A DNA stretch of 46,386 nucleotides from the IMG/VR virus record IMGVR_UViG_2913167280_000002, one strand, 5' to 3'. Made by a program: the position numbers and the translations under genes. Each line of letters starts with the position of its first letter. Position 1 is the first letter of the stretch. Source of the DNA: a virus (Duplodnaviria; Heunggongvirae; Uroviricota; Caudoviricetes). The notes below the pieces were generated by a model. The model was not told the origin of the DNA, searched no databases, and was given only the letters and a program-made list of their open reading frames with translations. This document shows, in pieces, positions 778 through 23,970 of this stretch.

Positions 778-794
778 AACCACGTAACGTGGTT
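778..794. promoter_or_regulatory. operator-like palindrome AACCACGTAACGTGGTT upstream of repA
   Basis: Perfect 7-bp inverted arms; same AACCAC-N5-GTGGTT half-site pattern as the sites around the CI-like repressor gene. Confidence 0.45.
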
Positions 795-835: not shown

Positions 836-917
836 ACAAAAAGCCCGCAGATAAATCTGCGGGCTTCTTGCGACATCCACGGAAAAACCAACAAAAATAT
901 CCATGGGCGCCTCGACA
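836..917 (-). ncRNA. candidate CopA-like countertranscript antisense to the repA leader
   Basis: Minus-strand intrinsic terminator (stem GCCCGCAG/CTGCGGGC at 842-863 followed by a T-run on the minus strand) and minus-strand promoter-like TTGCGT-N16-TATAAT (-35 at 951-946, -10 at 929-924). Boundaries approximate. Confidence 0.4.
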
Positions 918-961
918 ACTCCCATTATACGTTGGTTTTCCGTGGACGCAAGAGCGAACAT

Positions 962-5608: not shown

Positions 5609-6760
5609 TTATGGTCTGCTTTTCTGTGCCAGCTTATCAGCACATGTTTTTATCAGATCCTGTAGTGTCCTGGCTGGCAGGTTTGCATCCAGAACGCTGA
5701 GTATGCTGTTGTGATCAGCTTGGTCGACTACTTTGCCTGTCGGTGGTAGTAGCTTGAGCTGAGGATTCAGGTTTTCGTCAAAGCTGATAAGTGCTCTGGC
5801 GTTTCTGAGCAGATCAAGAAGTAAGGCTGATATCACATTTTCCTGAGTCATTGCTGGCAGATTTAGCGCCGCTTTGGTTTTCCCTGTTGCCTTGTCAAAC
5901 TCCTTGATTAGTTCCTTTCTGTAGTTCGGTTCCGTTAATAGCCGATTATGCTCTGTTGCCGCGCGGATAATCGTTTTTTCCTGGTACAGTCGTTTAGCCA
6001 GATCGCGCTCGTACTGTGTTTTTAACACGCTGCTGATAGCGTTAAAGGCTTCAATGTAGGCCAGCTTGATATCTTTCACGCCTGGACCGTCGATGCTCTC
6101 CATGAGCAAGGTAAATCCGTCTTTTGTCATGCGATAGATTGTTATTTCGCGGTCGCTTCCTTCCAGCGGTCGTTGCTCTTTAAAGAAGTGACGCGCCGCA
6201 GCCGTGCGAGGAATGCGTAGCGCATCGATGGCCATAACGATGGAATTGTTTGTGGTGCTGAATGCCTGGGCAACATCGGCTGAGGTTGTGAGTGGCTCGT
6301 TGTTGCACACTTTAATGTAAAACATCGGTTTGGCGTTGAGCGTATCGACAACCTCACGAGCATTGTTTGGCGAGACGGTTACGGTCGCGGCCGTTTGCGC
6401 GTTCTGGCTGAAATAGCAGTCTTCCAGCCGTTCGAATACATCCCACGCCTGATCGGTTTCGAGCATTTTAGCGTGACGTGCAGCCCCGCGTTCTGTCCAG
6501 AGGATGAGAGAGCGAGTTTTGGGGGAAATTTGCACCTCATTTTGTGACTCGTTTAAAACTAGTCGCAAATTTTTGAGTTCATCACCAACAGCTTTAAAGA
6601 AGTGCTTCCCCTCAATGAACCGAGTTTTATTTTCATGGTGATTTTGCTGTATACGGATTGCTTCTGTTCCATAAAGGCGGGCGAGTAGCTCAGTTGTGAT
6701 TACTGGAATCTGATTATGCAGGATAGGCTGTAGGGTGTTAACGATCGGAAGCGTTTTCAT
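5609..6760 (-). CDS. phage antirepressor-like protein (Ant/Rha-type)
   Basis: 383 aa; N-terminal region resembles antirepressor/Rha regulatory domains; preceded by an overlapping small ORF as in P1 icd-ant. Confidence 0.5.
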   Translation of the reverse strand: MKTLPIVNTLQPILHNQIPVITTELLARLYGTEAIRIQQNHHENKTRFIEGKHFFKAVGDELKNLRLVLNESQNEVQISPKTRSLILWTERGAARHAKMLETDQAWDVFERLEDCYFSQNAQTAATVTVSPNNAREVVDTLNAKPMFYIKVCNNEPLTTSADVAQAFSTTNNSIVMAIDALRIPRTAAARHFFKEQRPLEGSDREITIYRMTKDGFTLLMESIDGPGVKDIKLAYIEAFNAISSVLKTQYERDLAKRLYQEKTIIRAATEHNRLLTEPNYRKELIKEFDKATGKTKAALNLPAMTQENVISALLLDLLRNARALISFDENLNPQLKLLPPTGKVVDQADHNSILSVLDANLPARTLQDLIKTCADKLAQKSRP

Positions 6761-6948
6761 TTTGCACCTCCCATAACAACTTTGGTTACGAGGGAGATTT
6801 TTGCGTCAGAAACAGCGTTATCGTTGCTGGCGATGCGCATAGCTTCGCGCTCGATGATTTCAGCCAGGCGGAATTTATCGGCGTATGAGGCTTTCTTGAG
6901 AAGGATCTTTACGAGGTTGACGTAATAGTCATGGGGTAGGTTTGTCAT
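6757..6948 (-). CDS. small protein translationally coupled to the antirepressor (icd-like position)
   Basis: 63 aa; ATGA overlap with the antirepressor start. Confidence 0.4.
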   Translation of the reverse strand: MTNLPHDYYVNLVKILLKKASYADKFRLAEIIEREAMRIASNDNAVSDAKISLVTKVVMGGAK

Positions 6949-7113
6949 TGTGATGATTCCCTTAAAGGTTAAGGATACTCACCACCGTCAGGTTCCAATC
7001 ATTGGGTGGTGAGACGTGCAGGGTTGGAACTACCGGACACAATGACGAACCGGCGAGTCTTACGACTCCCCCGCACGCCCCACCATAATTTGGGTGTAGC
7101 AGTGCTTTACGCA

Positions 7114-7200
7114 TAAAAAAACCGCTAACGCGGTATGCGCCATTGTGTCTACGGGGTTCCAATCCCGGCCGTAGATTTTGCTACGGCTCGGAAAGTGTCC
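7114..7200 (-). ncRNA. candidate small regulatory RNA upstream of the antirepressor operon (c4-like position)
   Basis: Minus-strand terminator (stem ACCGC/GCGGT at 7121-7134 plus T-run); hairpin 7149-7174 whose loop carries GGTTCCAAT; no ORF. Boundaries approximate. Confidence 0.3.
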
Positions 7201-7245: not shown

Positions 7246-7263
7246 AACCACATAGTGTGGGTT
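7246..7263. promoter_or_regulatory. operator-like palindrome (ACCAC-N5-GTGGG)
   Basis: aaccacatagtgtgggtt between the divergent antirepressor region and the 7398 HTH gene. Confidence 0.35.
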
Positions 7264-7397: not shown

Positions 7398-7937
7398 ATG
7401 ATTGAACTGTCAAAAAACTCATGTTTTTCAACCATTCACCTAATGATCATAAAAGAACTTAGGCTAGAAAGAGGTGTGCATCAAGGAGTACTGGCTCAAG
7501 CTGCTGGAAAAACACCAAACGCATGGACAAAGATAGAGAACGGGCAGTCTATATTAACAGTTGACGCCCTTTTTGGTGCTTTCACAGCCCTTAATATTAC
7601 TCCAGTGAATTTCATGTCATTGGTAGAAAATCTTATTCCCGAATTTAACCGTTATGGTTACTTCTTTTTCCCTGGAACAATCAGTCAGGACGAGGATAAC
7701 CTTTTACCTCTGATGCTGCGTTACTTTAATAGCAAGGGGTTTGAAGCATTGAGAAATAGGCCATTAGAAAGAGTTAGCATTAGCTCAATGGGATTCTCAT
7801 TTGGGGGCGGCATCCCTGTTACTCCAACTGCTGTAATGTATTGTTGCGATGAAGCATATAGAAATTGGGTCGATAACGGTGCTGATGTGGATAATCGAGA
7901 TTATCTGGAGTCATCAACAGGTCGTGGACTGTTTTAA
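7398..7937 (+). CDS. HTH (XRE-family) domain protein with C-terminal domain of unknown function
   Basis: N-terminal HTH segment GVLAQAAGKTPNAWTKIENG; 179 aa. Confidence 0.5.
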   Translation: MIELSKNSCFSTIHLMIIKELRLERGVHQGVLAQAAGKTPNAWTKIENGQSILTVDALFGAFTALNITPVNFMSLVENLIPEFNRYGYFFFPGTISQDEDNLLPLMLRYFNSKGFEALRNRPLERVSISSMGFSFGGGIPVTPTAVMYCCDEAYRNWVDNGADVDNRDYLESSTGRGLF

Positions 7938-7982: not shown

Positions 7983-8374
7983 GTGCTGATCGGATTCGCG
8001 GTCCTTTCAGCATTACGTTGTTGTATAAACAACCACGCAAGCACAAGCAGCAAGTTGATTTTACCCAAAAGGTAATAATAGTCCACTATTATGCTTCAAA
8101 AAATTGTGGTTCTTGTTGTGTCTGCAAACTCACAGATTGTGGGTAGGTTACTGATTTTGTGAAAATAAACTGGTTTTTTCGTTTAATTTATTTCCTATTA
8201 CTAATCTTAAAATAATCGTAAAATACCTGTGGACCTTCCCGCCGATTCGCACCCGGGCACCGACTTTAGGGGAGGATTTCCTGTTGCCGTACATGCAAGC
8301 ACAAGCAGCCGTGCTTGCTCTCGCGTTGTTTTCGTCGGTGGGGATGCCGTGAAACGGCCTGTAAGGGCCATACA

Positions 8375-8497
8375 ATGAAAAAATACTGTATGTGTATTTT
8401 TATCGTTGTTACTGGGGCTTTGTTTACGCCACATGGGGAGGGTTGGAAGATTACTGATAACGCTCTGAATGTGACGATAAACATTAGCAGCAAGTAG
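8375..8497 (+). CDS. candidate small hydrophobic peptide (40 aa)
   Basis: MKKYCMCIFIVVTGALFTPHG...; AAGGG about 8 nt upstream; ends just before the terminator at 8503. Speculative. Confidence 0.25.
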   Translation: MKKYCMCIFIVVTGALFTPHGEGWKITDNALNVTINISSK

Positions 8498-8502
8498 CGA
8501 TT

Positions 8503-8526
8503 AGGCCCCTTCGGGGGCCTTTTTTA
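8503..8526 (+). terminator. rho-independent terminator
   Basis: Stem AGGCCCC/GGGGCCT, loop TTCG, then TTTTT. Confidence 0.65.
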
Positions 8527-8747: not shown

Positions 8748-8996
8748 TTACTTCTGGTTGTATTGAGCCTTGAGTAACTCAAAAGACTTTGTCAGCACTT
8801 CTTTCAATGACATATCCATTGAGCTGGCGAACGTTTTGTACTCGCGTTTAAATTCAGGGTCGACGTTAAACGCCATTTGTGCCCCACCTGATTTGGTTCT
8901 GGTTGGCGTTTCAGTCGGGTCGAAAACCTGCGGTTGTTCGATCGATGGCGGTACGCCTTTGCTGTTCTTCTTTGGTGGTTTTGATGGTGCGGCCAT
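8748..8996 (-). CDS. ribbon-helix-helix centromere-binding protein (ParG-like)
   Basis: 82 aa, basic flexible N-terminus then RHH-like MAFNVDPEFKREYKTFAS...; AGAGGGGA RBS; directly downstream of parA. Confidence 0.55.
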   Translation of the reverse strand: MAAPSKPPKKNSKGVPPSIEQPQVFDPTETPTRTKSGGAQMAFNVDPEFKREYKTFASSMDMSLKEVLTKSFELLKAQYNQK

Positions 8997-9039
8997 GTGT
9001 ATCCCCTCTTATATAAATCTATAAAACTATAATTATATA

Positions 9040-9693
9040 TTACGCGGCAGTAGTCAGAGCCTCAAGCTGGTTGATAATCCCCTGAATAACGTCGTCTGCC
9101 TTTTTGCGTGGCGCAACGTATGAGCACTCAATGAGGCTTAAGCCCTTATCCTGAGCTTTGCTCAGAGCTGGCTTGTGGGGAATGTACTTATCGACAACAA
9201 AGTATGGCGTATTAGCCAGGTACTCTTGGGCTTCGATGTAGTCAGCTTCGTTTTCAGCCGCGCCGGAAAACACCATGCAAATTTTCTTGATTGGTACGCC
9301 CTTTTTAACGATGCCGTGAGCAGTGTTAACGGTGGTTTCAAGGTCATCGGTAGAGAATCGGGTTGGCAAAATAACCATATCCAGAAATTCAGATAGCTTC
9401 GGTACTGATTCAGATGCGTAGGCACCGCCATCAACGATAACCAGGTCGTATACTTCTGATTCGATGATTTTCTGGACTTGTGATGGCGTGCCGCACGGCT
9501 GCGCCGCGATTGCAGGTTCGATATTGTTGGCCATTCTGCGTTGTACCCAACGCGTTACCGTTCCGTTAAGCACATCCATATCGATCAGGCATACATTCCA
9601 GCCAGCCTTTGCATAAGCAACTGCTAAAGCACGGGCAATGGTTGATTTGGTTACGCCGCCTTTTCCGTTGAAAATACCTACAGATATAGTCAT
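9040..9693 (-). CDS. parA: partition ATPase ParA (small type Ib)
   Basis: Deviant Walker A GKGGVTKST; about 217 aa; GGAG RBS before the second in-frame Met. Confidence 0.8.
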   Translation of the reverse strand: MTISVGIFNGKGGVTKSTIARALAVAYAKAGWNVCLIDMDVLNGTVTRWVQRRMANNIEPAIAAQPCGTPSQVQKIIESEVYDLVIVDGGAYASESVPKLSEFLDMVILPTRFSTDDLETTVNTAHGIVKKGVPIKKICMVFSGAAENEADYIEAQEYLANTPYFVVDKYIPHKPALSKAQDKGLSLIECSYVAPRKKADDVIQGIINQLEALTTAA

Positions 9694-9714
9694 TTGTCGA
9701 GACTCCATGTGTTT

Positions 9715-9825
9715 GATTATATAATTCTATAAATCTATATTTATAGAATGAGGTAAGCATAACCAACTTTTGAGCGGATGAAAAGCACTTTATATAATTA
9801 TATAAATCTATAATATTTAAGCGGG
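9715..9825. repeat. AT-rich octamer arrays upstream of parA (candidate centromere and promoter)
   Basis: Two clusters of TTATATAA/TTATAGAT-type units. Confidence 0.4.
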
Positions 9826-10250: not shown

Positions 10251-10267
10251 AACCACAAAATGTGGTT
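10251..10267. promoter_or_regulatory. operator palindrome AACCACAAAATGTGGTT
   Basis: Perfect 17-bp palindrome between the repressor stop and the next minus-strand gene. Confidence 0.45.
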
Positions 10268-10965: not shown

Positions 10966-11002
10966 GTCTCATCAATCGTGAATGGTGGGTTATTTATACA
11001 TT

Positions 11003-11121
11003 ACCACATTTAGTGGTTTTCACGCGGTAAGACGAGATGTGGACCACAAATAGAAGGCTATTTTTTGTTTCGCCCATTGAAAAACTCACGATATGTGGTT
11101 TTAATACCACATATCGTGGTT
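11003..11121. promoter_or_regulatory. immunity-switch operator cluster
   Basis: ACCACATTTAGTGGT (11003-11017), CTCACGATATGTGGTT (11085-11100) and ACCACATATCGTGGTT (11106-11121) in the divergent intergenic region; rightward promoter-like TTGAAA-N17-TTAATA overlaps the last two. Confidence 0.5.
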
Positions 11122-11138: not shown

Positions 11139-11633
11139 ATGACCTTTCAGGAGTGGGTTGACGAAAATGGAGGCCAAATTGGTGTTGCCAGAAAGTTTGG
11201 CTTTACGTCATCACTGATTGGTGCCTGGTATCGCTTCGAGAGATTCCCTCGTGCGGATAACCTGACGCTGCTGGTGGCGTATTCGGAAGGCCGGATTAAC
11301 GTCCAGCAATGGGCGGCAGATTTTGCCGAACGTCAGCGCCAGCGTAGCGATGGCACATCGGTTCGGCAGAACAAGATCAAAGGGAATCTCCCTGTTAACT
11401 GCTTATCAAGGCTGAAAGCGGTTTTCTCTGAGCTGGGGATGCCTGCGGAGCGTTGCAATCTACGCGGTCCGCGATTCATTGCTCGCTGGAAACACTCACA
11501 CGTAACCGTTTCAGAGGTTCGTGATGCGATTGCCGTGCTGGAGTTTAAGAATAAAGATTCCAGCGATATCGAGCTGATTCATAAGGAGATTAGCAACGCC
11601 CGGCGTTCAGCACTTGGGAGGCTTGAGGAATGA
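11139..11633 (+). CDS. first early-operon protein, putative Cro-like or regulatory protein
   Basis: Divergent from the repressor; N-terminal HTH-like segment; GGAG RBS. Confidence 0.35.
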   Translation: MTFQEWVDENGGQIGVARKFGFTSSLIGAWYRFERFPRADNLTLLVAYSEGRINVQQWAADFAERQRQRSDGTSVRQNKIKGNLPVNCLSRLKAVFSELGMPAERCNLRGPRFIARWKHSHVTVSEVRDAIAVLEFKNKDSSDIELIHKEISNARRSALGRLEE

Positions 11634-19936: not shown

Positions 19937-20012
19937 GGCCCCTTAGCTCAGTGGTTAGAGCAGGCGACTCATAATCGCACGGTCATCGGTTCAAGTCCGG
20001 TAGGGGCCACCA
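19937..20012 (+). tRNA. tRNA with CAU anticodon (Met or lysidine-modified Ile)
   Basis: 76 nt; 7-bp acceptor stem, D-arm GCTC/GAGC, anticodon loop CTCATAA, T-loop TTCAAGT, encoded CCA; one G-A mismatch at the top of the anticodon stem. Confidence 0.75.
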
Positions 20013-23346: not shown

Positions 23347-23970
23347 ATGACAAAACAACTTAATGTGGTTTCTTTACCACTTTCTGTGTTGATTGGTTAT
23401 GAAAAGAACGCTCGCACACACTCCGTGGAGCAGGTAGATCAGATTGTTGCCAGCATACAGGAGTACGGATGGACTAATCCGATCCTGATAGACGAGAACA
23501 ACGTTGTAATTGCTGGTCATGGTCGAATTGCTGCGGCCACTCAGTTGGGGATGGATGATGTTCCCTGCATTGTTCTGGCTGGGCTAACGGAGAATCAGAA
23601 GAAGGCATATCGTCTGGCCGACAACCGTATTCCGCTGAATGCTGGTTGGGATGAAGAGCTGTTAAGCGCGGAGCTTGCAGATCTTGCGGCCGATGATTTT
23701 GCTCTGGACTCAATTGGTTTTACTCAGCGCGAACTGGATAACTTATTGAGTGCGGCGGTCTACGATGACACAGAGGGTATGGATATCCCATTTGAGAAGG
23801 ATGAGGCCAAATCAGGCGTAAAAGTTCAGTACCTGTCATTTGGAGGTCATAAAATCCCGGCAACGGATGAGGAAGCGGATCGTTTTGACTGCGCGGTGTC
23901 TCGTTATGTTGATGATAATGGCAGCTATATCGGATTTGTATCCGCATTGCTGGCTGGGGAGGTGTGCTGA
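23347..23970 (+). CDS. ParB-like nuclease-domain protein
   Basis: ParB N-terminal-domain pattern ...NPILIDENNVVIAGHGRIAAA...; paralogous to the 26636 protein. Confidence 0.6.
   Translation: MTKQLNVVSLPLSVLIGYEKNARTHSVEQVDQIVASIQEYGWTNPILIDENNVVIAGHGRIAAATQLGMDDVPCIVLAGLTENQKKAYRLADNRIPLNAGWDEELLSAELADLAADDFALDSIGFTQRELDNLLSAAVYDDTEGMDIPFEKDEAKSGVKVQYLSFGGHKIPATDEEADRFDCAVSRYVDDNGSYIGFVSALLAGEVC

Follow-up and report, generated by a model that had tools for sequence, protein, structure and literature searches.

Phage-plasmids need a strictly low copy number as plasmids and rapid amplification as phages, and to our knowledge the way in which plasmid and phage replication are reconciled is known in detail for very few of them (N15, P1). 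In phage P1, the C1 repressor, which is not an XRE/S24-type protein, acts at many dispersed operators, including those of the immI c4-icd-ant operon and of the lytic replicon repL; the replicon under C1 control is the lytic one, distinct from the plasmid replicon, whose repA is autoregulated via iterons. Lambda CI acts at OR/PR on 17-bp dyad operators whose arms are conserved and whose centre varies, and occupancy of these operators shuts off initiator synthesis (O, P). The RepA of N15 is a large primase-helicase-type protein unrelated to IncFII RepA. Its repA promoter is overlapped by two OL operators, which are bound by the repressor CB, and CB sets the copy number (PMC4488713). In plasmid R1, PcopB is constitutive and reads through, PrepA is ~90% repressed by CopB, and relief of this repression is needed for establishment (PMC5717011). 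Here we describe a palindrome upstream of an IncFII-type repA that closely resembles the immunity operators of the same element, and we estimate a probability of about 0.8 that it is a CI/Cro operator lowering repA transcription.

The window (the whole stretch of DNA analysed, 46,386 nucleotides) corresponds to a circular element of ~48 kb, a myovirus-type phage-plasmid with an IncFII-type RepA. Its first 2.4 kb are 99% identical to the Yersinia phages vB_YpM_39/41/44 (49 kb, circular records) and also match ~70 non-mobilizable plasmids of 46–52 kb from E. coli, E. albertii, E. fergusonii, Klebsiella aerogenes and Salmonella, among them the 48.5-kb plasmid of the quality-control strain E. coli ATCC 25922 (NZ_CP009073). 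The repA leader was found in 71 of 5426 complete E. coli genomes (1.3%), plasmid-borne every time and never chromosomal, and the element is therefore taken to be a circular myovirus-type phage-plasmid. In PLSDB, the repA leader and the cI region occur together in 61–62 plasmids and nowhere else. Beyond E. coli, the family extends to Salmonella, Klebsiella, Enterobacter, Citrobacter and Yokenella, and includes infectious Yersinia phage isolates.

Two clades of relatives were compared. Clade A comprised six lineages (E. coli, Salmonella, Yokenella, K. aerogenes, C. amalonaticus and E. cloacae) with RepA proteins 81–100% identical and leader regions 74–98% identical in pairwise comparison. Clade B, found by protein search, consists of 44–62-kb contigs with RepA ~60% and CI 27–30% identical, and has the same gene order as the window (Mu-like baseplate, tail fibre, repA, toxin-antitoxin, Rha/ant, parA, cI, 164-aa gene). 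The features of the window are collected in Table 1.

Table 1. Features of the replicon and immunity regions, in window coordinates.
Feature	Position	Strand	Sequence or composition	Basis
Hin-type invertase	94–648
Upstream promoter P1, left edge of replicon module	645–672	plus	TTGACT-16-TATGAT	promoter scan
Three GATC sites between P1 and P2	686–727			read from sequence
Predicted repA promoter P2	741–769	plus	GTGCAT (741–746), 17-nt spacer, TAGAGT (764–769)	conservation
Candidate operator O_rep	778–794	no strand	AACCACGTAACGTGGTT	matrix score, arm conservation, clade B replacement at equal position
CopA-like countertranscript region, predicted	830–950	minus		fold energy, compensatory changes
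repA, IncFII-type initiator	962–1810	plus		Pfam IncFII_repA
P1-immI-like module (C4 antisense RNA, isrK, Ant-like gene)	5609–7187	minus
Operator-like site between C4/isrK/ant module and 179-aa HTH gene	7246–7262		AACCACATAGTGTGGGT	matrix
179-aa HTH gene	7398–7937
parA	9040–9708
Operator downstream of cI, upstream of 111-aa gene	10251–10267		AACCACAAAATGTGGTT	exact pattern, matrix
CI-like repressor, 218 aa	10309–10965	minus	N-terminal XRE-type HTH, C-terminal S24-like domain	Pfam, PHROG
Operator adjoining cI start (PRM side)	11002–11018		TACCACATTTAGTGGTT	one mismatch, matrix
Operator filling spacer of rightward promoter (TTGAAA-17-TTTAAT)	11084–11100		ACTCACGATATGTGGTT	two mismatches; geometry read from sequence
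Operator over -10/+1 of rightward promoter	11105–11121		TACCACATATCGTGGTT	one mismatch, matrix
164-aa protein gene, first of rightward operon, candidate Cro-like partner	11139–11633	plus		position only
Rightward operon, led by 164-aa protein gene	from 11139

A preliminary description of this DNA had reported a perfect palindrome upstream of repA, and the observation is confirmed: AACCACGTAACGTGGTT is read there as 8 + 1 + 8 bp (AACCACGT-A-ACGTGGTT), with ACCAC and GTGGT half-sites 10 bp apart, centre to centre. It lies 167 bp upstream of the first ATG of the conserved region (962), 179 bp upstream of the repA start shared by relatives (974) and 35 bp upstream of the annotated start (830). The same description had assigned the pattern AACCAC-N5-GTGGTT to the operators flanking the CI-like repressor gene as well. 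This is exact for the site at 10251 and approximate for the others, with one mismatch at 11002 and 11105 and two at 11084. Exact copies of the pattern number two in the window (778 and 10251), where 100 shuffles gave an expectation of 0.00. Allowing up to two mismatches raises the count to nine, with 11002, 11084, 11105 and 7246 among them, where 1.5 would be expected; none of the shuffles (0/100) reached nine.

To avoid circularity, a position weight matrix was trained on the four cI-flanking sites only, leaving the 778 site out. On this matrix the 778 site scored 25.8 bits, which ranks it second in the window and ahead of three training sites out of four; in 200 random 46-kb sequences, the top score per sequence had a mean of 13.1 and a maximum of 21.3. 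The 778 site scores as a member of the CI/Cro operator set without having contributed to its training, and was equalled in none of the 200 random sequences. The site at 7246 (22.9 bits) also exceeded the random maximum; it overlaps no predicted core promoter, and a site resembling it is found at the equal place in three relatives (L038, L039 and L040). A further site at 23354 (19.8 bits) was taken as chance, as it scored below the random maximum and falls within the first codons of a ParB-like gene.

The sites of the immunity region are placed where CI/Cro operators are expected, namely in the spacer of the rightward promoter, over its -10/+1 and on the cI-proximal side. The interval from cI to the rightward 164-aa gene contains three of them (11002, 11084 and 11105) as well as a half-site at 11041. 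The CI-like protein matched Pfam HTH_3 (E = 4.5e-11) and the PHROG family phrog_4, 'transcriptional repressor' (E = 1.8e-27), and its Peptidase_S24 match of 20 bits was under the cut-off of 23.3. Its catalytic motifs were read by eye as DELM and VLRH rather than G(D/N)SM and VKRL; a search for the catalytic Ser/Lys by BLASTP and hhalign against LexA and by PDB sequence search gave no usable alignment. Going by these motifs, the repressor may not self-cleave, and if they are indeed replaced, induction would run via the Ant/C4 module and not via RecA-mediated cleavage. A scan of the window for LexA boxes gave one match, inside the late region and no more than chance, and none at the replicon or immunity region. 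The 164-aa protein had no Pfam match and belongs to PHROG 7452 (function unknown); it adjoins the operators in all relatives, and this position makes it a candidate Cro-like partner.

Several other features of the early region were recorded. The P1-immI-like module includes a C4 RNA (7002–7090, minus strand, 77.8 bits), isrK (7115–7187, minus strand), a 63-aa ORF and an Ant-like ORF6N/Rha gene (5609–6760). A full-length match to the ryfA RNA (8229–8525, 143 bits) separates the HTH gene from the partition genes. Upstream of parA (9710–9820), repeated AT-rich motifs (tataattctataaatctatatttatagaat and similar ones) are probably the partition site or the parA operator. The late region carries a tRNA gene (19937–20009; tRNA-Met in the Yersinia phage record).

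The canonical sigma-70 promoter scan recognised promoter P1 only, ~100 bp upstream of the dyad. Homology between elements starts at the -35 of promoter P1, which is also found in the clade B locus L032 (TTGACG-16-TAGAAT). The spacer of promoter P1 is variable between elements, and the promoter therefore carries no operator; palindromes in the clade B spacers were considered as extra operators and rejected, since the spacer is different in every element. The 778 dyad is found 8 bp downstream of a conserved extended -10, TGnTAGAGT, part of a predicted promoter (P2) that the canonical scan missed. The last three bases of the P2 spacer (761–763) form the TGn of this element and read TGG in the window. 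Every element of both clades keeps GTGCAY and TGnTAGAGTT, with variation at base n and in the spacer, and TGnTAGAGT is the only promoter element common to both clades. The dyad begins 8–9 bp after TGnTAGAGT in all 31 loci with the replicon module (31/31). As P2 was missed by the canonical scan and has no recognisable -35, its transcription start is a conservation-based guess; we place it at ~776, which would put the dyad at about +2 to +18 of the predicted P2. The GATC (Dam) cluster between the two promoters recurs at the equivalent position in both clades and also in L033 (9770–9790), a relative that is a conjugative plasmid, and may reflect methylation- or SeqA-linked replicon control.

Downstream of the dyad there is a variable leader hairpin, followed by a region of strong RNA structure. 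On the minus strand, positions 828–950 fold with -65.6 kcal/mol (z = -9.7) and positions 830–914 with -41.1 kcal/mol (z = -6.3). As read from the minus-strand sequence, a GC-rich terminator hairpin (~838–870) is followed by a U-run with run-off at ~830, and a minus-strand TATAAT at 921–926 predicts a 5' end at ~914, or alternatively near 950. The terminator stem shows compensatory AG/CT to GG/CC changes between lineages. An Rfam search of 600–1100, at gathering thresholds and at E <= 10, assigned no family to the countertranscript, CopA included, and matches to Thr_leader and CsrC were dismissed as terminator look-alikes. The structure predicted at 830–950 would fit the layout of an IncFII countertranscript, though with no Rfam match to CopA.

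RepA matched Pfam IncFII_repA with E = 8e-44 over positions 2–272 of the 275-position profile. Databases annotate it as a 326-aa protein from 830, in a frame that crosses the countertranscript and terminator; the RepA of relatives has 277 aa and a start equivalent to 974, so the long form is probably an annotation artefact. Between hin and the repA leader there is no conserved ORF and no room for copB. The early operon showed no further recognisable initiator, helicase or helicase loader, only a DUF3560 protein with a weak primase-family PHROG match. By this argument from absence, RepA may serve lytic replication too.

Across the six clade A lineages, the arms of the dyad (AAAACCACG / GTGGTTA) were invariant in 16/16 columns and its four central bases in 0/4. 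The TAGAGT hexamer was likewise fixed (6/6), and the next 44 leader columns had only 13 invariant positions (13/44), the hairpin within them being kept by compensatory changes. Leader RNA helices that drift, next to dyad arms that are fixed around a free centre, form the pattern expected of a site for a dimeric DNA-binding protein and not of an RNA stem. All six lineages (6/6) carry the same operator family around cI. Sites homologous to the 10251 operator were found in the Salmonella, Yokenella, C. amalonaticus and E. cloacae relatives, and the operator downstream of cI in C. amalonaticus is a 17-mer identical to window positions 778–794.

Clade B offers a comparison in which the repressor itself differs, the start of the CI recognition helix being altered between the clades (GIGLSTLQNYE vs GIPRSTIQNYE). 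Its elements keep promoter P1 (TTGACG-16-TAGAAT), the GATC cluster, GTGCAT-N17 and TGCTAGAGT, and at the position equal to that of the 778 site, nine bp past the -10, they have the dyad TGACTAC-AAAAY-GTAGCA. The 9-mer TGACTACAA within it is the conserved half-site of the clade B cI-cro spacer, as found in four lineages with differing inter-site sequences. In L032, this 9-mer has four copies in 20.8 kb, one at repA and three in the cI-cro spacer, and it is confined to the same two places in L031+L041 (one contig) and L045, which brings the number of independent clade B elements compared to three. It is absent from the window. The occurrence of TGACTACAA at both places in clade B indicates that the repA operator tracks the immunity operators of its own element.

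The switch in specificity is not clean, as the clade B immunity regions keep some GTGGT half-sites and one hybrid operator. The latter, AACCAC-GAATT-GTAGTT, is promoter-proximal in a Lelliottia element of clade B (L043, 9955–9975) and suggests that either C or T at half-site position 3 may be tolerated by the clade B repressor; clades A and B may be only partly heteroimmune. A search of IMG/VR and metagenomes with a degenerate P2 pattern for a third operator type returned clade A and B modules and unrelated chance matches only, and RepA alignment against species-representative genomes gave no relative. Exact-word scans for the Lelliottia and JGI clade B contigs also found none, and the repA leaders of L042 and L043 are for this reason not paired with their immunity regions.

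Some features of the relatives are specific to their replicons. In three clade B elements (L031, L032 and L035, 9516–10004), an extra 162-aa ORF separates the antisense target from repA. This ORF resembles IncFII_repA weakly (31% identical to RepA, E = 2.5e-13) and shares an ATGA overlap with the repA start; it looks like a long RepA-derived 'leader' gene that is translationally coupled to repA. The contigs of L031, L034, L035 and L037, which are independent assemblies, end 1947–2006 nt past the repA stop codon, which suggests either a repeat common with another replicon or a defined genome end. In the conjugative T4SS plasmid L033, two tandem XRE-type HTH genes (8968–9745) are positioned directly upstream of repA and are preceded by two LexA-box-like palindromes at 8790–8840 (CTGTATAAATAAACAG and a neighbour); this arrangement may be a different, SOS-linked solution to repA control.

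The preliminary description had proposed 778–794 as a candidate CI/Cro operator controlling repA, and all computational tests run agree with this proposal. A chance palindrome without function would draw on the general frequency of short palindromes and nothing more; with 0/100 and 0/200 randomisations reaching the observed match, and arms invariant in six lineages with diverged flanks, its probability is practically negligible. The palindrome could also be mainly an RNA element, a 5' leader stem-loop for mRNA stability or antisense control whose likeness to the operators is secondary. Its capacity to fold as RNA was counted against the operator reading: a 7-bp hairpin forms at the start of the predicted leader, and CTAC/GTAG of clade B would pair too. 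The true leader helices, however, change by compensation, whereas in the dyad the loop alone varies. The operator likeness also reaches past the stem, as seen from AAAACCAC...GTGGTT for clade A and from TGACTACAA for clade B, and the operators near cI sit in other transcriptional contexts. We regard a primary RNA role as unlikely, second among the alternatives.

Foremost among them, and unlikely as well, is an operator that is bound by the repressor and has its main job elsewhere, either as a looping anchor together with 7246, 10251 and 11002–11121 or as a roadblock shielding the replicon from transcription that runs in from hin, the tail-fibre genes or promoter P1. The fixed distance between dyad and TGnTAGAGT in both clades is hard to explain on these terms unless TGnTAGAGT is a promoter, and blocked P1 transcripts would still lower repA expression, so that the net effect would be the same. 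Against the operator reading, we counted that there is one operator at repA and two adjacent sites at the rightward promoter; a single, isolated site fits looping or a roadblock, as does the similar 7246 site with its lack of an overlapping core promoter, and with P1 as the sole canonical promoter the 778 site would be a roadblock on it. A binder other than the immunity proteins, be it the 179-aa HTH protein, RepA in autoregulation or a host factor, is very unlikely. The operator-like site at 7246 adjoins the gene for the 179-aa protein, but this protein was rejected as the binder because L002 and L003, complete Salmonella plasmids in which every site is retained, encode no homologue of it; CI and the 164-aa protein are present in every relative. 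Many plasmid initiators autoregulate, which counts for RepA. A RepA or host site would nevertheless not be expected to recur 3–4 times round cI, nor to co-vary with the clade B CI, and IncFII RepA is not known to autoregulate, a role that CopB has (PMC5717011). The conjugative non-phage plasmid described above, whose RepA is 63% identical, lacks the dyad and has its two XRE genes upstream of repA. As to CI and the Cro-like protein as the putative binder, sequence analysis does not separate them.

From the operator reading we infer binding at the dyad, a transcription start at P2, the direction and size of an effect on repA, and a physiological role, as follows. A CI dimer, and possibly the Cro-like product too, would sit on the dyad and block RNA polymerase at P2. 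In the lysogen, repA would be transcribed weakly, via read-through from the unregulated promoter P1, and the CopA-like antisense RNA (830 to ~914–950, minus strand) would fine-tune RepA synthesis. When the repressor is absent, as in fresh infection, or inactivated, as upon induction, P2 would fire, RepA would outrun the antisense RNA and the copy number would rise. Since RepA is the only recognisable initiator, repressing it completely would cure the plasmid, and the model therefore requires that repression be leaky or that promoter P1 read through. Such a circuit would follow the two-promoter logic of R1 with the phage repressor in CopB's place. Literature searches found no binding or expression data for this phage-plasmid family. 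A further-reading version, which we hold to be tentative and somewhat below even odds, is that CI replaced CopB and that one IncFII replicon serves both lifestyles: CI on would give plasmid copy number (P1 read-through and antisense control), CI lost would give runaway lytic replication, and CI in a lysogen would also keep superinfecting genomes from replicating.

Compared to the described systems, the locus shares something with each. The analogy to CB of N15, drawn in the preliminary description, stands in so far as CB binds two OL operators overlapping the repA promoter, and does not extend to the replicon, which is of IncFII type and unrelated to that of N15. As with CB and OL in N15 and phiKO2, copy number and lytic replication would be tied to immunity (PMC4488713; see also PMC4997575). 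N15 is, in contrast, a linear siphovirus plasmid with telomeres, whereas the element of the window is circular and myovirus-like; N15 has two OL operators at repA as opposed to one here, and the repressors and operator sequences are unrelated. A comparison by components (N15-like RepA, CB, a linear genome with protelomerase) found IncFII_repA and circular records instead, which makes the relation to N15 one of functional analogy and not of family membership.

Because the IncFII-type replicon is unrelated to that of N15, a closer parallel in mechanism is offered by plasmid R1 and its control of PrepA by CopB. The initiators belong to the same family (Pfam IncFII_repA), and the order of an unregulated upstream promoter, a repressible downstream promoter, an antisense target and repA is shared, in part by prediction. 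A scarce repressor would, as in R1, lead to derepression and aid establishment. Here, however, copB is absent, the candidate repressor is the phage immunity repressor encoded 9.5 kb away, the countertranscript has no Rfam CopA match, and no tap-like leader peptide was established. Phage P1 resembles the element in that operators of one immunity repressor are scattered over a plasmid prophage, one of them near the C4-RNA/ant module (7246 in the window), and in that the immunity repressor controls a replication function, for which the element is a candidate. It differs in that the candidate controlled gene here is the only recognisable initiator. As in lambda, a repressor on the operator would shut off initiator synthesis; the lambda replication genes are found inside the PR operon, whereas repA here forms a distinct module of plasmid type, which has promoters and antisense control of its own and lies 9.5 kb away from the immunity region. 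Taken on the sequence comparisons, the operator reading is well supported, and the locus would be an independent instance of the regulatory idea of N15, put on an IncFII-type replicon in CopB's place.

The design of an immunity repressor acting at repA has until now been known mainly from N15, an unrelated linear phage-plasmid. If the repressor acts on the R1-like repA promoter, the element would represent a second, independent solution to the problem that N15 solved, and a natural case in which a phage control circuit has taken over from a plasmid one (CopB). Copy number, curing, induction and incompatibility or immunity would also become accessible to simple genetic manipulation in these elements. 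Should a single IncFII replicon indeed serve both lifestyles, one operator would decide between 'plasmid' and 'phage' replication, and the element would do without an origin or initiator dedicated to the lytic phase.
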